A stretch of 49,739 nt of DNA from Malassezia furfur (lineage: Eukaryota): assembly GCA_052055015.1 (NCBI GenBank), contig JBQJIT010000031.1; one strand, given 5' to 3'. The position numbers and the translations under genes are program-made. The notes under the pieces are model-generated. The model was not told where the DNA came from. It did no database searches and saw only the letters and a program-made list of their open reading frames with translations. Shown piece by piece: positions 1 to 16,979 of the stretch (positions are counted from its first letter, which is position 1; the number at the start of each line of letters is the position of its first letter).

Positions 1-2973
1 ATCCGCGCCGGCTCGGCGCCGAGCGAGCCCGCAACGCCGACCCGCCCGCCGCCCGGCGACGTGCTGATGCGCACCAGCACGCCGGTCTCGCACGACACGC
101 CCGCTGCGCCGCCGTCCACCTCGTCGCCGCCGATGAGCCCCGAGATCAACGTGCTAAACCGCATGGCACGCGTCGACTCTGGCGGCAAGCTGTGGCTCGA
201 GCGGCGCTCGAGCGATGCCAAGCCCAAGAGCGAGGACTCGGCCGCGGCGGTGCACGACGACTCGGGCGTGTTTTGTGAGCAAGAGACGTCAGACTCGTCG
301 AGCATGCTTGGCTGGGGCCCGCGTGCGTTTGTGCGCACGGCGTCGGGCGCGACCGAGCATTTGAATGCGAGCATGAAAAGCATGAGTCTGCTTGACCGGA
401 TCATGCTGAGCAAGACGAGCCCACGGCGCATGCGGCGCGAGGCCAAGGCGCGTACGCACTCGGCGCTCGACACGGACGACGACGAGGAGAGCGCAGGCGA
501 CGTTGCGGCGCTGCGCCGCGCGCCCGCCGCCGAGGTCGGTGCCGACGTAAGCTCGACATCGCACTGGGCCGACGTGTCGGCCGACTCGACGGCGTCCGGC
601 GCCGAGGACGAGGTGCCCACGGCTACGGCATCACCTGGGCACGGTGCGGCACGCGCCGGGGGCATGCGGTGGCCGCCGGCGGTGTCAACGCCGCCGCGCG
701 TTGGCACCGAGACGGCAGCGGCAGCGGCCGAGCAGTACGACTTTGTCATCGAGGACATCTCGCCCGACAAGCCTGTGGCGCCCGCCGAATCGCCGATCCG
801 CTCACACGCGACGCCTGGCGCGTCTGCGACACCGCTCACCAAGCTCGATGTCAGTGCACAGATCACGCCCATGCGCTACTCGCCCGGCTACGCTATGGGC
901 TACTCACACGGGCGGTCGACGTCGATCACGTCTATGTTCTCGCCCAATATCCTCACGCCCTGGTCGCACCAAGGCCGGCTGATGAGCAACGCGGGGCTGA
1001 CCAACATCACTAGCTCGCCCAACCTGTCCGGCGAGTGGCTCAGCACCAGCACGATGCTGAACGTGCCGGGCAGTGCGTCGCGCAGCAACATGATCTATAC
1101 CTCGACGCCGCTCTCGCACGCGTTCGGCGACGAATCCTACGCGCACGCGCCCAATGCGTCGCCGAACCGCCTGCTGTACATCGAGTCGTTCCCCGGCAAG
1201 TCGCCGCAGCAGGCGCGCTCGGTGCTCGCCAACGACTCACCCACCAAGCCGCTCCGCGCACACGCCGCGGCGCCCCTGACCCCGCTCACCCACCGCGCGC
1301 CCCGCGGCGCGACACGCGAGAGCCCGCGTGCACACACGCCGGGCACAGCGTCGGCGGCGCGCCTCGACCTGGCGCGGCGCATCGCGCCGATGTACGATGC
1401 GCCGGCGCCGATGTCCACCGCGTGGGACAAGGTGCCGTTCCGTCGCACCGATACCATCCGGCCCGCAGACCTCTTCCATCCTGCGGCGACGTCGGCGTGG
1501 ACGCTGGCGCCAGACGCCTCGCCCGTGGACACGGACGAGGAGGCGACCACTAGCAGCGCGCGGCGCGACGGCGAGGACAAGGCGCACGCGGCCCGTGCGC
1601 GCGCCGCGCGGCGGCAGGCGCCAATGCAGCGCTCCACGTCGGCGGTCGCGGCGATGACGCCAATGCACGGCGACGATGTGTTTGCGCATTCCGCGCCGTC
1701 CGGCGACGGGCCCTCCGCGTCGTCCGCACTGCACGATGTGTTTGCTGAGCCGCTCACCTCGACGGACGCGCACCGCACGGAGTGGGACCGCCCGGACGGG
1801 AGCCGCGTGGTGAAGCTCGTCTCCGAGGAGCTGCAGGCGGCCATTGACTCGGGCACGCTGCAGACCGAGCCCAAGCCGCGCTTCTTCCGCCTGCCACCCG
1901 GGCACGGGAGCAGCAAGGCGAAGCCCGCGTCGGTGTCGTACGCGGGCCTCATCGGGCAGGCGATCCTCTCTTCGTCGGATGGGCGGCTGAGCCTCGCAGA
2001 GATCTACCAGTGGATCAGCAGCATGTATCCCTACTACGAGCGCGGCGACCGCGGCTGGCAAAACAGCATCCGGCACAACCTGTCGCTCAACAAGAGCTTT
2101 GTCAAGCTTGAGCGCGAGTCAAGCATTCCGGGCAAGGGCGGCTGGTGGGCCATCCTGCCCGGCCACGAGTCGCGCTTCCAGAACGGCATGTACCAGCCAA
2201 ACGCGGCGCGCACGGATGCGACGGCTGCCCAGCCTGCTGCGCGCACACTGAAGCCGTCGCACTCGGCGCCCGCGCACGCACTGCGCTCACCCATGCGCGA
2301 GGGCGGCAAGAAACGGCACGGTGCGCTGCAGGCGTCGCCCGAGCCGAGCGACGAGTCTTTGTCGGACGTGTCATTCAAGCGGCCTAAAACGGCACGCGCG
2401 GGGCGCGCCAGCATACACACGCCCATGCGCCTCGACGCCCCGCAAAACTCCTCGAGCGGCACGGGGCACAACCACCTTCCCGTGCTCACCGACACCACCT
2501 CCTCGCCGGCGACGAGCCCGCTGCAGAGTTTGTCGCACGACGCACACGCGCACGTGCCCTCTGTGCCGCGGACGTGGCGCACGGAGCTCGGGGCGTATGC
2601 GCCCAGCACGGCGGACCGCTCGCCGCACAAGTCGACAGGCATGGCACCGCCGCCCAACGCCGCTGCTTATGCTCGCTCGGTGCCCGACATGCCCGAGTTT
2701 CCTACCAACCCCATGTACTTCCATCCCGAGCCTCCGCGCGCCTTCCCGCCCTCGTTCTCCCCTTCGCGGCGCGCGCCCATGCACCTGATGCCCATGTCCC
2801 AGGCCCCGATGCCGGGCATGCACACCTATCCGCACACGGCCTATGTCGCCTGTACGTATCCACCGGCGCCGGACGCCGCCTTTTTGCCGTGGCCCGACAG
2901 TCACGGCGGGGACGCAGGCCTCCATCCCGGCGCCGCAAGCCCCTCGCGTCTCGGCTGGCCACACGCGCCCTAA
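1..2973 (+). CDS. Forkhead (winged-helix) transcription factor, probably 5'-truncated by the window edge
   Basis: Frame is open from base 1. Forkhead domain at ~1921-2170 (KPASVSYAGLIGQAI...LSLAEIYQWI...YPYY...GWQNSIRHNLSLNKSFVK...GKGGWW), flanked by Ser/Pro-rich low-complexity sequence with many SP/TP sites. Confidence 0.9.
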   Translation: MRAGSAPSEPATPTRPPPGDVLMRTSTPVSHDTPAAPPSTSSPPMSPEINVLNRMARVDSGGKLWLERRSSDAKPKSEDSAAAVHDDSGVFCEQETSDSSSMLGWGPRAFVRTASGATEHLNASMKSMSLLDRIMLSKTSPRRMRREAKARTHSALDTDDDEESAGDVAALRRAPAAEVGADVSSTSHWADVSADSTASGAEDEVPTATASPGHGAARAGGMRWPPAVSTPPRVGTETAAAAAEQYDFVIEDISPDKPVAPAESPIRSHATPGASATPLTKLDVSAQITPMRYSPGYAMGYSHGRSTSITSMFSPNILTPWSHQGRLMSNAGLTNITSSPNLSGEWLSTSTMLNVPGSASRSNMIYTSTPLSHAFGDESYAHAPNASPNRLLYIESFPGKSPQQARSVLANDSPTKPLRAHAAAPLTPLTHRAPRGATRESPRAHTPGTASAARLDLARRIAPMYDAPAPMSTAWDKVPFRRTDTIRPADLFHPAATSAWTLAPDASPVDTDEEATTSSARRDGEDKAHAARARAARRQAPMQRSTSAVAAMTPMHGDDVFAHSAPSGDGPSASSALHDVFAEPLTSTDAHRTEWDRPDGSRVVKLVSEELQAAIDSGTLQTEPKPRFFRLPPGHGSSKAKPASVSYAGLIGQAILSSSDGRLSLAEIYQWISSMYPYYERGDRGWQNSIRHNLSLNKSFVKLERESSIPGKGGWWAILPGHESRFQNGMYQPNAARTDATAAQPAARTLKPSHSAPAHALRSPMREGGKKRHGALQASPEPSDESLSDVSFKRPKTARAGRASIHTPMRLDAPQNSSSGTGHNHLPVLTDTTSSPATSPLQSLSHDAHAHVPSVPRTWRTELGAYAPSTADRSPHKSTGMAPPPNAAAYARSVPDMPEFPTNPMYFHPEPPRAFPPSFSPSRRAPMHLMPMSQAPMPGMHTYPHTAYVACTYPPAPDAAFLPWPDSHGGDAGLHPGAASPSRLGWPHAP

Positions 2974-3104
2974 TTCGCCGCCAGCGCGCTTGTTGTTTGT
3001 TTCGATAGTGCCCCTGTACTTTACTGGCCCGTGCATATCCGCCACGATCCGAGCGCGCGCGCCACGTGCAGCGATAAGCCGCCAGACGCCGTGCTTCGTA
3101 CACC

Positions 3105-4466
3105 ATGTCCTCTGATCTCGCAGCCTACGGCAAAGCACACGTCTCGACCGGTATCGGGCGCCAGACCGACTTTGTGTTCGAAGAGGGGCACGGCAGCTAT
3201 GTCACCACCGCAGACGGAAAGCGCCTGCTCGACCTGTCCTCGTACGTTGTGCATCCCGACTCACCTTCAGCGGTATCGGCGTCGTGAACGTCGGCCACTG
3301 CCACCCTACTGTGGCCAAGGCGGCCCAAGAACAGTGCGCCAAGATCACGCATGCCCAGGTGAACATCGCCTTCAGCGGGCCGCAGCTGCGTCTGTTGCAG
3401 GATCTCGAGGGGATTATGCCCTCCAAGGAACTCGACACCTTCTTCCTCGCCAACTCGGGCTCCGAAGCGATCGAGGGCGCCGTGCGCATCGCGCGGCACT
3501 CAACCAAGCGCCAAAATATCATCGTCGTGCAGGGTACGCATTTGCACCAAGCTCACACCGCCAGGCTCCTACCACGGGCGTACCGCCGGTGCTGCATCTA
3601 TGACGCGCTCCAAAACGGCATACAGCGCCGGCGTCGGGCCACTGATGCCGTGCGTGTACACCTCGCCCTTCCCGTACTATTCCCAGCTGCTTCTACAGCC
3701 GGATGCATCGGAAGACGAGATGGTCGACTACTGCCTCAAGCGTCTGCGCATGCTTCTCGACCAGGAGACAGCGCCGCGCGACACGGCTGCCATTTTCCTT
3801 GAACCGGTGCTAGGCGAGGGCGGGTACGTCCCCGCGCCTCCGGCGTTCATCCGCGGCATCCGCGACATTTGTGACGAGCATGGTATCGTGTTTGTCGCCG
3901 ACGAGATCCAAAGCGGGTTCGGACGCACTGGCAAGATGTTCGCGATGGAGTACTCGGGCGTTGTGCCAGACCTGATGACCATCGCCAAGGGCATTGCCAA
4001 CGGGTTCCCACTCAGCGCCGTTGTCGGCAAGAAAAAGTTTATGGATGCCATGCCGCCCGCCTCGCTCGGTGGCACCTACACGGGCAACGCGGTGGCATGC
4101 GCAGCAGCACAGGCCGTCCTTCGCGTGTTTCGCGAAGAAAAGGTGCTCGACAACGTCGCAGCACGCAGCAAGCAACTCTTTGATGGGCTTGCGGCTATCC
4201 GCCAAAAGCCGCACGGCAAGCTCATTGAGGATGTGCGAGGCCAGGGTTTAATGATCGCGGTTCAATTTACGTCCCCGACGAAGGAGCAGGTGCGAGGGCG
4301 CGTCGTCAAGGGGTGCACGGAACGCAACATGATTCTGCTTTCGACGAGCATCTTTGATGTGGTGCGCATCATTCCGCCGCTCACCATCTCCGAGCAGGAG
4401 ATGGATGATGCGATCCGTATCCTCGACGAGAGTATCGCAGATGCAGCGAAGCAGCTCGCGGCCTAG
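3105..4466 (+). CDS. Class III PLP aminotransferase, 4-aminobutyrate aminotransferase (GabT)-like, ~433 aa; introns 3242-3270 (29 nt), 3534-3564 (31 nt)
   Basis: Splicing restores LDLSSGIGVVNVGHCHP and QGSYHGRT. Also present: NSGSEAIE, EPVLGEGG, DEIQSGFGRTG, AKGIANGFPLS (PLP lysine) and GGTYTGN. Confidence 0.85.
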
Positions 4467-8500: not shown

Positions 8501-9166
8501 CGCACAACGCGCATGCCACGACCACCACCACCCATGGCGGCTTTGATGATCACGGGGAAGCCCACTTCCTTGATGAACGGCTCAGCGGCATCGTAGCTCG
8601 CAATCGGACCAGGCGTGCCGGGCACAATAGGGACCTGCGCATCACGCGCCAGGTCACGCGCCTTGGTCTTGTCTCCCAGAGAGTCAATCGTCTCGGGACG
8701 CGGGCCCACAAACGCAATCCCCGCCTGCTCGACCTTGCGCGCGAATTCGGGGTTCTCCGAAAGGAACCCGTAACCGGGATGAATCATATCGACCTTGTTT
8801 TCCTTCGCAATACGCACAATGTCATCCATGGCCAGATACGCAGCCACAGGCGACATGCCCTTGCCGACCTGGAATGCGTAATCGGCCTTGTACCGATGAG
8901 CCGACATGCGATCTTCATAGCTGTAGATTGCAACCGACTCCAGGCCGAGCTCATGCGCCGTACGGAAGATCCGGATAGCAATTTCCTAAGGGGTCAGTAT
9001 GCATTGCCATGCTTATACGTACACCACGGTTGGCGACCATCAGGCGGCGGAGAGGCACGCCGGACCGGCTGCGGAGACCATCCCGCACGGACTCCAAAGT
9101 ACGGAAGTCAAAGTCGGCAGTCGCCGCACCTTCATCCAAACTTTGTTCCGGTTTACTGCTTGCCAT
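5557..9166 (-). CDS. PYC1: Pyruvate carboxylase, ~1190 aa; intron 8986-9022 (37 nt)
   Basis: Splicing gives LMVANRG|EIAIRIFRTAHEL. Motifs: GGGGRGMR, ERDCSVQRRHQK, RDAHQS, WGGATFD, IKDMAG, HVHSHD and the biotinylation site AMKM. Confidence 0.97.
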
Positions 9167-9844
9167 CTTCGAGGACGAGAAACCTATACAGACCAGAGGG
9201 CAAAGGTCCTAGTCTCGCTAGCCAGGAGGGGGAGGACAAGCTATCGGGCTGGCCGCGATAAAAGTCCAAAGGGTCCTCTGGACCGCCGATTTCCCTGGCT
9301 CGTACACCGGTCCAAACGATTGGCGCGATCTCTCCAGCACTGCAGCACCGCGGACCGACGTGCAGCTGCTTTCAAAAAAAATCTCCACATAATGCCGAGC
9401 TGACACGGTGTCTCGCTAGACCACGCGCGGGCTTGGTACGTGCACGGTCCGGGTCCGATACGACCACGAACCAAGCATGCCAACACCCCATGCCACCAAG
9501 CACTAGCATTGCTGGCATTACACAAGACGCTCTCATTTGCCTAGGTTTCACGATTATCACCAACGTTCCAATATCATACAAATCGCTATTCTACAGATAA
9601 AAGCGTGATCAGAGCATGGTATAGGCACCCATAGCAGCTATACCTACACTCTGTTGGCGAAAGCCATCACAAGGAGAAAAATTGCTGAATCGTATAAAAC
9701 GAGTCAGACGATGTGGTTCGTTTTGTTTGCGATAAGCAAAAGTCTACGTCTCGGTAGGTACCTCAGTGACCGTAGAGCCTGTCCATGCAGAAAGATGAGG
9801 ATCCACGATGACGCACGCGCGCCCTATATACGTTTTGGGCGCGA

Positions 9845-9917
9845 TTTGCCACGTGGCAAACCCTTTGGCCGTTGTATCACGTGGTACGGTACAGCAAACT
9901 ATCCAGTCGTACACGTG
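9845..9917. promoter_or_regulatory. Three CACGTG boxes upstream of RPS18, the first within the perfect 16-bp palindrome TTTGCCACGTGGCAAA
   Basis: CACGTG at 9850, 9878 and 9912; palindrome 9845-9860; a TATATA at ~9825. Confidence 0.55.
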
Positions 9918-9989
9918 ACCTGTTCGCTGCCGCGCAGGAGGCAGGATTCCCATACGGCTCCGCCGCTTGCCTAATTCACCACCGTCACC

Positions 9990-12452: not shown

Positions 12453-14330
12453 TTAGTTTCGGCCCAAGAATTGGTAGATCACCAACGACACAAGTCGCGA
12501 CAAACTCTCGGGGTGGTGGACGTACGTGCCCATAATCAGGGAAATGCTCACCGAGGCGAGCCAGAAGTCGCCGTACGGAACGCGAGGCAAAATACCCTTG
12601 CGGCGGCCCAGCACCCAGTAGGACTCGAGCGCCTTGGGCAGCACGTACGCCGACAGCTCGCTGCGCCGACGTGGCTGCTCGACAAATAGGGCCAGGCAGG
12701 TCAGGAAGCCGGGAATCATGTTCATCCGCCCGTCCTGCAGCAGATCGGAGATGCGCATGGCCGTACTCGACTTGCTCAGCCGCGGGCTGTAGCGGATCGA
12801 GTCCGAGATTTCGTGGAAGATGCAGAACGAGGTCTTGACAATCGCGATGTACACGGCAAGGAATGCCGAAGAGCGTGCGGCGCTGGAGACCGAGCGCATC
12901 GATGCATTCAGCGGATCGCGCAAGAACGTTTTAGGACGCAAAAAGACCGTCGGGACAACGTAGAGAGTAAGATAGACCGGCATAATCCACTTCCAGCGTC
13001 CCACCAGGTTCGTCAGGAGAACGCGGAAGTGGTTCGTGGAGTAAGGGTGGGACAACGAGCACGAGGGGAAGTGGCGCAGGTCGCCGCGGTCAAAGTAGCG
13101 GTACATCCTGGCGACCATATCGCCAGAGATGCCCTTAGGGTAGTGCTTGTTCGGCGGAAGGTCCGGGTACGTGAGCGGCTCAGTGCTGATGGGTTCGGGC
13201 AGCTGTCCGCCAAACAGATCCACAAGTGTCCATGGGTTGGCACCAAGCGGGTCTTCTTGCGTGCATCCCACTAGCATGTCGAGTATGTTGCGCGGCAGGT
13301 CCGAGGCCTTGGTGATCCAACGACTGTACGACGGCGGCAGCAAAGTCGGGTCGGTGAGCCATGCCCAAATGATCTGCATATTGGCAATACCAAACACCAG
13401 CACGGATCCGTACGGAATGTCGATGTATCCGCGCGACCGCGCAAAGCGGTAGGAACCTTCCAAGCCACGCACGAACAACTGCGGACCAAATGACTGCACC
13501 AGGCTCTTGCGCTCGACCAGCAGTGCCACCGACGAGATGGCACCACTGACGTAGGCATGCCAGTAACGCACGCGCGGGTCGTACGCTGACAGGTGGCGCC
13601 GGTGGTGATCTCTACCAGGCGACTTGTGATGATGATGATGATGATGATGATGCTTGTGCGACTTGTGGTGCTTGCGCGACTTCATCGACATCGACAGGCC
13701 GTCTTCTTCCTCCGACGGTTCGGGCACAGCTAGGCCGGGCTCCGTGCGACTGCGCGTCTTGGTGCCATGCGGACCACTGCGCTTGGGGAACGGCGTGAGA
13801 AGACGCAGCGCATTGTTCACAAACTTGAACAGACCCGACCACAGGCCAAACATCAGCGCGAAGCGCACCGTGTCTTCGGCCAGGAACGACTGCTTGAACA
13901 GGTCCGACCGGCCACGTCTTGAGCGCAGCAATTTGATAAGCGCAAACAGGTACGTCAGACAGCCACGCAGACCGTATGAGATCATGAATGCGCGCGCGCC
14001 AGCGCGGAAGACGTGAACGATGAGGCGCTCCCAGTCGCTCGGGATGCGTGCTTCTTCGTCCTTGGGACGCCAAAGCTTGTTTTGGATGTTGCGGCGGACT
14101 TCGGAGAAAGGCTTGGTGGACATCTCATGGAGTGCACTGAAGCTAAGCGAGCGCTTCAAACTCTCCATCGTTTCGGAGAGGTTGGGCGTCGTTGCGCCCG
14201 ACTGCAGCTCGCGCCAAGCAGCAAGTTCGTCATCGCTGTTGTTTGCAAGCTCCTCCTGGAGTGCGGGGGTAGGGGGTAGCGAGGTCAGACGATCCGGAAA
14301 AGGCCGTCCCTTCTCCCTCTCCTCGCTCAT
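12453..14330 (-). CDS. TMEM135-family membrane protein with an internal poly-His tract
   Basis: RFALMFG, YVSGAISSVALL, LFVRGLE, GSVLVFGIANMQIIWAW, CSLSHP, ARSSAFLAVY and VEQPRRRSELSAYVLPKALES are typical TMEM135 motifs. Confidence 0.8.
   Translation of the reverse strand: MSEEREKGRPFPDRLTSLPPTPALQEELANNSDDELAAWRELQSGATTPNLSETMESLKRSLSFSALHEMSTKPFSEVRRNIQNKLWRPKDEEARIPSDWERLIVHVFRAGARAFMISYGLRGCLTYLFALIKLLRSRRGRSDLFKQSFLAEDTVRFALMFGLWSGLFKFVNNALRLLTPFPKRSGPHGTKTRSRTEPGLAVPEPSEEEDGLSMSMKSRKHHKSHKHHHHHHHHHKSPGRDHHRRHLSAYDPRVRYWHAYVSGAISSVALLVERKSLVQSFGPQLFVRGLEGSYRFARSRGYIDIPYGSVLVFGIANMQIIWAWLTDPTLLPPSYSRWITKASDLPRNILDMLVGCTQEDPLGANPWTLVDLFGGQLPEPISTEPLTYPDLPPNKHYPKGISGDMVARMYRYFDRGDLRHFPSCSLSHPYSTNHFRVLLTNLVGRWKWIMPVYLTLYVVPTVFLRPKTFLRDPLNASMRSVSSAARSSAFLAVYIAIVKTSFCIFHEISDSIRYSPRLSKSSTAMRISDLLQDGRMNMIPGFLTCLALFVEQPRRRSELSAYVLPKALESYWVLGRRKGILPRVPYGDFWLASVSISLIMGTYVHHPESLSRLVSLVIYQFLGRN
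13626..13652 (-). repeat. (CAT)8-CAC trinucleotide microsatellite encoding His9
   Basis: gtg(atg)8 on the + strand; the protein reads KHHKSHKHHHHHHHHHKSPGRDHHRRH. Confidence 0.9.
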
Positions 14331-14460
14331 GGTCGGTCGTATGCTAGCCAGGGGCGGTCCGGGCGCGGCAAACTCCGCCCCAAAACATTATCCGCTCGGG
14401 TGTAGCCGCCGGCGATCTAGCACGTGGATTTACGGTTACGTCATGCCGAGGGCGTAACGC

Positions 14461-14478
14461 CCTGCTTACGTAAGCAGG
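14461..14478. promoter_or_regulatory. Perfect 18-bp palindrome CCTGCTTACGTAAGCAGG with a TTACGTAA core
   Basis: Seen directly. It lies 17 nt beyond the predicted U1 3' end, near TTACGTCA (~14436) and CACGTG (14421) in the TMEM135 upstream region. Function is unknown. Confidence 0.45.
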
Positions 14479-14495: not shown

Positions 14496-14722
14496 GGCAG
14501 ACGGTACCCCGGAGGGTACGGTCTGCCCGATCCAAATATTTCAACGTACTGCCACCCGTAGGGCAGCAGCGAGGGGCAAATCCTCCTGTATGGACAAAAG
14601 GGTCGCCGTGCAATGGGAGCATTCACCCCTCCCGCACCACATGCGTGAGCGCGTTGCGGAACGTCAAGGTCTGTCATGTTAGAACTGTCCTTGTAGGTCC
14701 ATTATCGAATACGTACAAGTAT
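14496..14722 (-). ncRNA. U1: U1 spliceosomal snRNA (~181 nt mature), interrupted by a spliceosomal intron at 14671-14716
   Basis: Spliced 5' end AUACUU|ACCUU. Helix H UUGACGU/ACGUUGA; SL1 with U1-70K-like loop GCUCACGCAU; SL2 stem GAGGGGUGAAU/AUUUGCCCCUC carrying the U1A motif AUUGCAC; SL3 GCUGCUGCCC/GGGUGGCAGU; Sm-like site AAUAUUUGG (14532-14540); terminal SL4 GGCAGAC-C-GUACCC/GGGUAC-C-GUCUGCC. A TATA box lies ~30 nt upstream. Confidence 0.92.
14671..14716 (-). other. 46-nt mRNA-type intron inside the U1 snRNA gene
   Basis: GTACGTATTCGATAATGGACCTACAAGGACAGTTCTAACATGACAG: the donor GTACGT most common in this window, branch TTCTAAC, acceptor CAG. Removal exactly restores the invariant U1 5' sequence. 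Confidence 0.88.
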
Positions 14723-14751
14723 GAGAAAACCGTGATTGCGGAGGGCGGCCT

Positions 14752-14760
14752 CTTATATAT
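14752..14760 (-). promoter_or_regulatory. TATA box of the U1 snRNA gene
   Basis: ATATATAAG on the minus strand, ending 30 nt upstream of the predicted U1 start at 14722. Confidence 0.7.
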
Positions 14761-14881
14761 TTTTTCCGTCCCGCTGCGGCGGCCGCACATTGGCCAGCTC
14801 CACCGGCGCTGCAAAATGGCCGCTACAAGGCCATCTTAATTCCTCGAATCTTTTGGGTGCCGGTGCGGCGCGTACGGACCA

Positions 14882-15826
14882 CTATGGCGAATGATGCAGG
14901 GCCTCAGTTGCTTCGCTGCTTGTCTTTGCAATCGTCTCTTGGAGCGACTTGGGGCAACTCTCGACGAGACTCGAGAGCTTCGGCAGAATGCGTGAGAGGA
15001 AGAACTGCTGCGCGACTTGCGCTCCCTGCGTGTGAGCCAAACGAGTAGACATACCCTGTAGTGATAGATCGCACCCATCACCGCCTCAACACACGCGCCG
15101 CGCACCTTGAAGAGGCCTGTCTCTTGCGATCCGGTCGCAGGATCGACACGCTGGGGTCAGCTAGGCAGAAAGTACCTACAATTGTCGGGTGCCAACGCAT
15201 CACGCGCTCGAGTTGCAGCGAGCGGCCGACGTGGTCGCCGAGTGTCTGCGTCCGGAGGAGGTTGTCCACGCCCTGCGGCGACGAGAGGATATTTTGCAGG
15301 AACCGGATTTCAGCCTCGGGGAGCGATTCGGCGCGACCCGCCTTGGCGAGCACGTCGAACAGGAAGAGAGAGAGGTAGGTTTTCAGTGCGCGCCGGCCTG
15401 GGTGTGAGTGTACGCGTACGTACCGAGGAAGGCGAGACGTCGGTTATGACCTTGCATGCCGTACATCCAGCTCTCGTGCGTGAGCGCGGTCACGGCCAGT
15501 ACCGCATTGTCGCCCAGGAGCGCGTGTTGGTCGCCCGACAGCGAGCGGTACGAAGAAAACTGCTCGCTGTTGAGGAACGACAGCATATCCGCGGGCTTCA
15601 AGTCGCTGCCGAGCGCACCAGAGGACGGCTGCACCGACTGCTGCTGCGTATGTACCGTGGACTGTGCGCTGGGCGCAACGTTAGTTGCGGACGCGGTGGT
15701 GCGCAGGCCACAGGCGCGCAGCGCAAATGGCTGCGGTGCGCGCATAAGAGCTGGGGTGCGCGCGCTGCCGACGAGACGTGCGCGCGCCACGATACGTGTT
15801 CCTGTCCGGAAAGATGCGGTGCCCAT
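14882..15826 (-). CDS. MRPL15: Mitochondrial ribosomal protein mL57/MRPL15 (degenerate RNase III fold), ~286 aa; introns 15398-15423, 15151-15179, 15026-15054
   Basis: Arg/Ala-rich presequence; ALTHESW...HNRRLAFLGRRAL, VEAVMGAIYHYRGAQVAQQF. Three GT-AG introns join three ORF fragments. An alternative ATG is at 15832. Confidence 0.75.
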
Positions 15827-15995
15827 GTTCATCGTTGCACACGCGCGCTGCTCCGCAAGGCACAGCGACGAGGGAAGTGGGTCGTGGAAGCCGGGTGGAC
15901 GAAGTCTTCGCAGACGAGGAATTAAGCATACATCCACGCCGCCGCGAAGCGAAAGTTCGATTTTCGCGCGTGCGACGCCTTCGGTTTTGTCAACG

Positions 15996-16979
15996 ATGTC
16001 TGTGGCGGAACCGTATGTGGCTGCGACTCACGCCAGACTTGCTCCTGCAGCTCCCAAGGCCGCCAACTGGGCGGATGATGACGCTGAGGATGGCGCTTGT
16101 ACGTTTCGCGCGACTCACACAGCTTCGAGCTCGCCGCGCGTCGAAGTGCGCGACGAAGGCAACGGTGTGCAGACCGTGATTGAATACCGCACCAACGCGG
16201 ATGGCAAGCCCGTTAAGGTGACGCGCCGCATCAAGCGGACGCTCGTGTCTACGCGCGTGAACCATGACGTGGCCGAGCGCAAGCAGTGGACTAAGTTTGG
16301 TCTCGAGAAGAACGCTGCTGCCGGCCCGCACGGTGGCACCACCTCGATCGGCGCCAATGTGCAGGTCAAACTCAGTGCGGGCGGAACGAAGGAGCCCGAG
16401 CAGGACCCGACCGATGCGATGCGCGAGAAGCTCGCGAACAAGCGCGTGCAGTGCCGTTTGTGCAAGGGCGACCACTACACGGCGCGCTGCCCGTACCGCG
16501 ATACGCTCGAGGCGATCCCCGGTGCGGGCGGCGAGACGCCAGAGGGCGAGGTTGCCAAGGCCGCGCTGCAGGCGGGCGATCCCGCGGCCGCCGCCAAGAT
16601 CAACCCGGCCGCGAGCCAGGCCCGTGCTGGGTTGGCGCCCGGCAAATACGTCCCGCCGAGCCTGCGTGCCGGCGCGGTGCCGACGGTGATGGGCAGCGGC
16701 GCGCCGCACCGCGATGACTCGTCGACGCTGCGTGTGACGAACCTGAGCGAGGACGTCGAGGAGGACGACCTGCGCGACCTTTTCCGTCGCTACGGCCGTG
16801 TGACGCGCATCTACCTCGGCCGCGACCGCGAGACGGGCGCGTGCAAGGGCTTTGCCTATGTCAACTTTGAGGACCGCGCGTCGGCGGATCTGGCGCGGCA
16901 AAAACTGGATGGTTTCCCGTACAGCAACCTGATCCTCAGCTGCCAGTGGTCGCAGCCGCGTGGGGAGCGTCCTACGTAG
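15996..16979 (+). CDS. TIF35: Translation initiation factor eIF3 subunit g, ~311 aa; probable in-frame 24-nt introns 16013-16036 and 16099-16122
   Basis: NWADD, AERKQWTKFG, CRLCKGDHYTARCPY zinc knuckle, KYVPPSLR and a C-terminal RRM (TLRVTNLSED...CKGFAYVNF). Confidence 0.95.
   Translation: MSVAEPYVAATHARLAPAAPKAANWADDDAEDGACTFRATHTASSSPRVEVRDEGNGVQTVIEYRTNADGKPVKVTRRIKRTLVSTRVNHDVAERKQWTKFGLEKNAAAGPHGGTTSIGANVQVKLSAGGTKEPEQDPTDAMREKLANKRVQCRLCKGDHYTARCPYRDTLEAIPGAGGETPEGEVAKAALQAGDPAAAAKINPAASQARAGLAPGKYVPPSLRAGAVPTVMGSGAPHRDDSSTLRVTNLSEDVEEDDLRDLFRRYGRVTRIYLGRDRETGACKGFAYVNFEDRASADLARQKLDGFPYSNLILSCQWSQPRGERPT

Follow-up and report, generated by a model that had tools for sequence, protein, structure and literature searches.

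The fungus Malassezia furfur appears to carry its U1 small nuclear RNA (snRNA) gene in two pieces, with a spliceosomal intron lying inside the segment that pairs with the starts of introns. The gene is found on the minus strand of a 49,739-nucleotide (nt) stretch of genomic DNA (contig JBQJIT010000031.1), the whole of which was analysed (denoted the window). As judged from sequence, the locus is very probably a functional Malassezia U1 snRNA gene whose 5′ arm is formed by splicing out a 46-nt intron. The 5′ splice-site-pairing arm, AUACUUACCU, is present only once these 46 nt are removed. An intron-split U1 5′ arm is already known in one other yeast, Erythrobasidium (Rhodotorula) hasegawianum. 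Malassezia would be the second lineage in which the spliceosome’s reader of intron starts must itself be spliced in order to work, in this case with conservation of the arrangement across a genus.

Anatomy of the U1 Locus

The initial annotation had described a TATA box, the hexamer ATACTT, a 46-nt intron with the branch motif TTCTAAC, and a second exon. Sequence inspection and a script located all elements of the split gene, each at its claimed place on the minus strand (Table 1). When the exons are joined they give AUACUUACCUU, which matches the Rfam consensus AUACUUACCUG at 10 of 11 positions, compared with 6 of 11 for the contiguous genomic sequence. The 12-mer ATACTTGTACGT, with one mismatch allowed, has a single occurrence in the 49.7-kb window, and this is at the U1 locus; the chance expectation is 0.06 matches, and 6 of 100 shuffled sequences contained one. 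The donor of the intron, GUACGUAU, had been said to pair with seven of the first eight nt of mature U1. A hand check agrees, with the lone mismatch being C+4 opposite U5.

Table 1. Features of the split U1 gene and its promoter region. Coordinates are those of the window.
Feature	Coordinates	Strand	Remarks
Upstream motif AGCGGCCA	14817–14824	minus	~88–95 nt upstream of ATACTT in 4/4 sequences
TATA box TATATAAG	14759–14752	minus	Invariant in 4/4 orthologues
Spacer, TATA box to ATACTT		minus	29 nt; exact length in 4/4, sequence diverged
Exon 1, ATACTT (U1 nt 1–6)	14722–14717	minus	6 nt; invariant in 4/4; inferred start 14722
Intron, spliceosomal-type	14716–14671	minus	46 nt; GTACGTATTCG...TTCTAACATGACAG; GTACGT...TTCTAAC...CAG
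Intron donor GTACGTAT	14716–14709	minus	
Intron branch motif TTCTAAC	14684–14678	minus	Branch A at 14679
Intron acceptor AG	14672–14671	minus	End of CAG
Exon 2 (U1 nt 7 to 3′ end)	14670–14496	minus	175 nt; starts ACCTTGACG, ends GTCTGCC at 14496
5′ arm remainder ACCUU	14670–14666	minus	
Helix H	14665–14661 with 14547–14543	minus	
SL1	14659–14632	minus	
SL2	14631–14571	minus	Loop CAUUGCAC at 14615–14608
SL3	14570–14548	minus	
Sm-like site AAUAUUUGG	14540–14532	minus	
SL4	14527–14496	minus	

Identity and Fold of the U1 Body

The Rfam model RF00003 matches the genomic sequence at 14676–14496 with 36.3 bits over model positions 1–166 (E-value of 1.1e-7 in a 501-nt search and 1.1e-5 for the whole window). 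It is the sole match, with no second U1 match to this model found anywhere in the window at relaxed thresholds. The score is about half of the gathering score of 69.5, which places the genomic sequence below the family threshold. Because of this shortfall, a default Rfam scan of the window at gathering thresholds reports U4 alone, at 9664–9796. The sub-threshold match begins inside the intron, at 14676, and its alignment puts the last six intron bases, UGACAG, under model positions 1–6 (AUACUU). From ACCU on, the alignment agrees with the model as far as the 3′ hairpin, the exact CAUUGCAC loop included. Judging by the printed alignment, the spliced form would turn four mismatches in model positions 1–6 into matches. 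For the relatives described below, the same model gives 28.7 bits for locus L003 and leaves L006 unreported even at an E-value of 0.1. The forecast that standard scans may miss or truncate the gene was therefore accurate, in that the default scan lacks U1, the relaxed match starts in the intron, L006 goes unreported, and a published screen holds no U1 for Malassezia globosa (PMC2396436). Annotation at Rfam thresholds will miss or truncate this gene.

The 181-nt RNA of the joined exons folds with nt 1–13 unpaired, followed by a four-way junction, the Sm-like AAUAUUUGG, and a terminal hairpin. Helix H, SL1, SL2, SL3, the Sm-like site, and SL4 form as previously proposed by eye; the junction, proposed to be flush, is so save for one unpaired nt between helix H and SL1. 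Exon 2 alone has a fold z-score of −5.47 against shuffles. The RNAalifold consensus of four orthologous sequences contains 57 pairs, 98.7% of whose cells are paired, and in 8 of them both sides have changed. These values were reached in 0 of 500 column shuffles, and slid controls, with partners shifted by 1–3 columns, kept 0–1 compensated pairs. With four sequences only, the covariation is supportive rather than conclusive of selection on U1 structure.

In U1, the SL2 loop AUUGCAC binds U1A and an SL1 loop of the AUCACGAAG type binds U1-70K. The SL2 loop CAUUGCAC matches exactly and does not vary among the four sequences. The SL1 loop, CUCACGCAUG, deviates from the consensus, having only UCACG in common with the AUCACGAAG type. 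The Sm-like site is imperfect and off consensus, reading AAUAUUUGG in the window and AAUCUUUAG in the relatives. Taken together, the 36.3-bit RF00003 match, the consensus fold, and the structural covariation support the identification of exon 2 as the body of U1, in line with the first reading of the locus.

Conservation across Malassezia Lineages

The U1 gene neighbors the gene for eIF3g, which occupies 15993–16979 on the plus strand. The best named relatives of this eIF3g are those of Malassezia psittaci (82% identity), M. vespertilionis (77%), and Malassezia sp. CBS 17886 (74%), and identity to other Ustilaginomycotina is near 60%, which places the window in Malassezia. A look-up of eIF3g in the ESM Atlas gave only broad clusters of eukaryotes. 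A metagenome scan with alignment of Malassezia-level eIF3g proteins gave seven loci (denoted L001–L007). A U1 orthologue sits at the same relative place and on the same strand in five of the seven, namely L001–L004 and L006. Locus L005 carries just 510 nt upstream of eIF3g, and no U1 orthologue was seen in L007, whose eIF3g is a 59% relative. Since L001–L003 are identical in the U1 region and L004 and L006 are close relatives, the comparison comprises four distinct sequences (window included) from three lineages, all within one genus.

All four sequences share TATATAAG, the exact 29-nt spacer, ATACTT, GTACGTA, and AG/ACCTTGACG (slashes mark splice junctions), and ATACTTGTACGTA is likewise invariant. 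With lengths of 46, 42, 44, and 44 nt, the introns all carry CTAAC 8–9 nt before AG/ACCTTGACG. Intron removal gives ATACTT/ACCTT, that is AUACUUACCUU, in every orthologue, which restores the conserved snRNA sequence exactly. Identity between lineages is 83–87% in exon 2, 62–65% in the intron with its signals included, 49–62% in the spacer from the TATA box to the start, and 50–58% in flanks of 100–200 nt. A real spliced intron in a selected gene should keep its signals while its interior and length drift, as is the case here, and this pattern is, at the level of sequence, unlike that of a pseudogene or a retained insert. The intron reading put forward originally is upheld by the retention of ATACTT plus GTACGTA, CTAAC, and AG/ACCTTGACG in the four orthologous sequences while interior and length drift.

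Conservation in all four sequences also rules out a chance co-occurrence of ATACTT with splice signals. A conserved hairpin between CAAGG of the intron and CCUUG of exon 2 was considered as well and is ruled out, as the relatives lack the word. Neither the window nor ~104 kb of related loci, 59 kb of which the Rfam scan covered, yielded a further U1-like sequence.

Agreement with a Host Intron

A screen for host introns by continuity of open reading frames (ORFs) returned 159 candidates, mostly false positives in GC-rich DNA. Owing to this noise, a single verified host intron was used as the reference, and the remaining short candidates are regarded as leads. It is a 37-nt intron of the pyruvate carboxylase gene on the minus strand (9022–8986), reading GTACGTAT...ACTGAC-6 nt-AG with a TTAG end. 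The downstream exon begins at position 12 of the Pfam profile Biotin_carb_N, and a Pfam search with the 62-aa first exon alone gave no match. The pyruvate carboxylase gene of L003 is interrupted at this very codon by an intron whose interior is not the same. The U1 intron, GTACGTAT...TTCTAAC-7 nt-AG, matches the pyruvate carboxylase intron of the window in its donor octamer and in the short stretch between branch and acceptor. In its GT...AG ends, donor, and branch motif, the putative U1 intron is in agreement with the verified host intron.

Two further features of the pyruvate carboxylase gene were observed (8986–9022 of the window, about 2560–2900 of L003). Its intron splits a conserved ANRG/EIA motif, an arrangement common to L003. 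Slightly downstream in the gene, L003 has an apparent extra GT...AG intron of ~34 nt, and L006 is without it.

Promoter and Transcription Start

The distance of 29 nt between the TATA box and ATACTT is fixed across four diverged spacers, and transcription therefore probably initiates at or next to the A of ATACTT. From this fixed spacing we infer a start at 14722. The spacing is similar to that of the U4 genes, in which a TATA-like box lies 25–26 nt before the Rfam-defined first base. The upstream motif AGCGGCCA may be a candidate snRNA-promoter upstream element shared in Malassezia.

Relation to Known snRNA Introns

Erythrobasidium hasegawianum, Sporobolomyces roseus, and Puccinia graminis belong to the Pucciniomycotina, and Malassezia to the Ustilaginomycotina. 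An mRNA-type intron in the Schizosaccharomyces pombe U6 gene was reportedly found by Tani and Ohshima in 1989, and Canzler et al. are said to have described introns in many fungal U6 genes in 2016. Takahashi, Tani, and Ohshima reportedly placed a Rhodotorula hasegawae U1 intron in the splice-site-pairing region in 1996 (J Biochem 120:677). A review of U6 includes a passage noting spliceosomal introns in U2, U5, and U1 genes, which cites Takahashi et al. 1993 and 1996, and a proposal of reverse splicing as the origin of snRNA-gene introns (PMC5855946). Precedent for mRNA-type introns in fungal snRNA genes, which the initial annotation had invoked, thus exists in that passage and in the E. hasegawianum U1 entry of a supplement (PMC2396436). 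Like the Malassezia U1 intron, the introns of S. pombe and other fungal U6 genes and of R. hasegawae U2 and U5 interrupt conserved segments of the snRNA that are critical to its function. They differ in that U6, U2, and U5 are RNAs at or near the catalytic center, whereas U1 departs before the active site forms, as stated in the same part of the review (PMC5855946).

The E. hasegawianum U1 gene (D63681.1), as given by Lopez et al. 2008 (PMC2396436, supplement 1), reads ATACTTA/GTTAGT...TACTAAC...CCAG/CCTGCAG, with a 64-nt intron between nt 7 and 8. In that entry it resembles the Malassezia gene in having a GT-AG intron of the mRNA type, with a yeast-like branch motif, in the intron-start-pairing 5′ arm. 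Both genes have a tiny first exon (7 nt there, 6 nt in Malassezia), both belong to basidiomycete yeasts, and in both the removal of the intron restores AUACUUACCU. The printed entry differs in the place of the intron, which is 1 nt further 3′ than the junction between nt 6 and 7 in Malassezia, in its length of 64 nt versus 42–46 nt, and in its donor, GTTAGT versus GTACGT. Conservation across three lineages of a genus, shown here, also sets the Malassezia intron apart.

An identical insertion position, as orthologous introns would have, was not found (nt 6 and 7 versus nt 7 and 8), and the 1-nt offset therefore suggests that the two introns were gained separately. A rival account, which concerns origin only, is that both go back to a single ancient intron of basidiomycete U1, which later shifted by 1 nt. 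It draws on the location of both introns in the same 5′ arm, 1 nt apart, in hosts that are both basidiomycetes, and on the absence of U1 for 7 of 13 basidiomycete genomes in the 2008 screen (PMC2396436), which leaves room for unseen intron-bearing U1 genes to be widespread. We regard such a common origin as unlikely: the positions and the lengths differ, no sequence likeness beyond the splice signals is seen by eye, and the U1 sequences of S. roseus and P. graminis in the supplement read ATACTTACCT uninterrupted (PMC2396436). Separate gain is the most likely account. The 1-nt offset offers a natural test of reverse splicing as the origin of snRNA introns.

Intronless U1 genes, as represented by RF00003 and by the S. 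roseus and P. graminis entries of the supplement, have the same 5′ arm, four-way junction, CAUUGCAC loop with GGCGAC after it, Sm-like site of the AAUCUUUAG type, and 3′ hairpin. The S. roseus and P. graminis sequences printed there share CATTGCAC with the window, followed by GGCGAC or AGCGAC (PMC2396436). The printed S. roseus sequence has the Sm-like word AATCTTTAG in common with L003, L004, and L006, and the window reads AATATTTGG (PMC2396436). The Malassezia gene differs from intronless U1 in being split after nt 6, with the genomic sequence scoring 36.3 bits against a threshold of 69.5.

The screen of 2008 lists U1 = 0 for M. globosa, in a PDF table whose layout limits how it can be read (PMC2396436, supplement 2). 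The same table, with the same limit, gives U1 = 0 for Coprinus, Cryptococcus, Laccaria, Phanerochaete, Postia, and Ustilago, making 7 of 13 basidiomycetes, and all six Pucciniomycotina rows hold at least one U1 (PMC2396436, supplement 2). Outside the Pucciniomycotina, in the other two subphyla, U1 genes may generally be divergent or split. A split gene probably explains the zero for M. globosa (PMC2396436). Among the literature titles and abstracts searched, no report of a U1 intron in Malassezia or other Ustilaginomycotina was found; subscription papers could contain one.

Is the Locus the Working U1 Gene?

Many eukaryotes carry U1 pseudogenes, and the locus could likewise be a decaying or silent copy, with the working U1 encoded by an intronless gene elsewhere in the genome. 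This established prevalence of pseudogenes and the low Rfam score are what such a reading has in its favor. We hold it to be quite improbable, given that the copy occupies one syntenic position in three lineages, with exon 2 at 83–87% identity and 8 compensated pairs between flanks of 50–58%, and that its TATA box, TATA spacing, exon 1, and donor are invariant. It also sits poorly with the lack of a second U1-like sequence in the window or the ~104 kb of related loci. The screen without any M. globosa U1 (PMC2396436) points the same way, though it is weak evidence because the same screen gives none for six other basidiomycetes. That the 46 nt are instead not removed, the RNA keeping them or starting downstream so that Malassezia U1 has an unusual 5′ end, is very improbable indeed: the unspliced RNA also folds stably (−93 kcal/mol), but by a hand check its AUACUUGUACG has G and U in place of the A7 and C8 needed for the donor GU, a start at exon 2 would lose nt 1–6 and leave the TATA box 89 nt upstream, and for a retained insert to keep just GTACGTA, CTAAC, and AG while its length shifts among 42, 44, and 46 nt and its interior drifts is unexpected.

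Proposed Maturation of Malassezia U1

For a functional gene with a spliced 5′ arm, the following pathway is proposed. Transcription by RNA polymerase II would begin at the A of ATACTT, ~30 nt downstream of the TATA box, and yield a precursor made up of a capped 6-nt exon 1, an ordinary 46-nt GU-AG intron whose donor is strong and whose branch site is CUAAC, and the 175-nt exon 2. Existing U1 particles would read the donor GUACGUAU, and the spliceosome would excise the intron. Only through this splicing would AUACUUACCUU, the 5′ arm that base-pairs with the starts of introns, be formed, and the remainder of the RNA is predicted to fold into the usual U1 cloverleaf, Sm site, and 3′ hairpin. In the unspliced AUACUUGUACG, the A7 and C8 required for pairing with the donor GU are replaced by G and U, and the unspliced precursor should therefore be inactive.

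U1 production would then depend on U1. Such an arrangement would be a dependency or positive loop, and it is not evidently homeostatic; a feedback role of the intron in U1 supply, as raised in the initial annotation, is put forward as an idea only. The competence of so short an exon for splicing is argued by analogy with the 7-nt first exon of E. hasegawianum, which suggests that 6 nt may suffice. A capped 6-nt first exon would be an extreme substrate for cap-proximal recognition of a donor. Malassezia can be transformed.

A broader reading, which we put forward tentatively and think rather doubtful as a whole, would make this the sole Malassezia U1 gene, with each U1 molecule a product of U1-dependent splicing of a capped 6-nt exon and a supply that depends on itself. 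Here the invariant, near-perfect donor GUACGUA might couple U1 output to splicing capacity, serving as a built-in sensor or as a priority substrate, and the intron might represent a second independent insertion within 1 nt of the E. hasegawianum site. If this were true, the U1 5′ arm in its donor-paired state would be marked out as a hot spot at which excised introns reverse-splice, and the zero counts of U1 in 7 of 13 basidiomycetes (PMC2396436) would hint at further split U1 genes.

Neighborhood of the Gene

The minus strand also carries, 4.7 kb from U1, a U4 snRNA gene that has no intron (9664–9796; RF00015, 48.1 bits against a threshold of 46). The order U4-U1-eIF3g is kept in L002, L003, L004, and L006. 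The sequence (A/G)CGGCCA, which is GCGGCCA-like and resembles the AGCGGCCA motif of U1, is present upstream of U4 in the window (9866–9872, minus), L003, and L004. The ~130 nt that precede the U4 start (9800–9930 of the window, minus) contain three CACGTG boxes, and CACGTG boxes are found upstream of U4 in L003, L004, and L006 too.

Just downstream of the U1 3′ end is a perfect 18-nt palindrome, CCTGCTTACGTAAGCAGG (14461–14478, minus). Near it is TGACGTAA (14436–14443, minus), and the relatives have TTACGTCA or TTACATAA at the corresponding place. The CCTGCTTACGTAAGCAGG and TGACGTAA sites, which we take to be of the bZIP type, could be promoter sites of the gene that follows (12453–14330, minus) or have a part in U1 3′-end formation. 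On the other side, a two-exon ORF of ~190 aa (14839–15443, minus) with a candidate 29-nt intron (15179–15151) ends ~80 nt upstream of the U1 TATA box. Its Pfam match to an RNase III-like domain is sub-threshold (16.5 bits against a cut-off of 35). The GC content of the window is 65–71% at the left end (1–4000) and 67% in the final 2 kb, compared with ~54–64% over most of the remainder.
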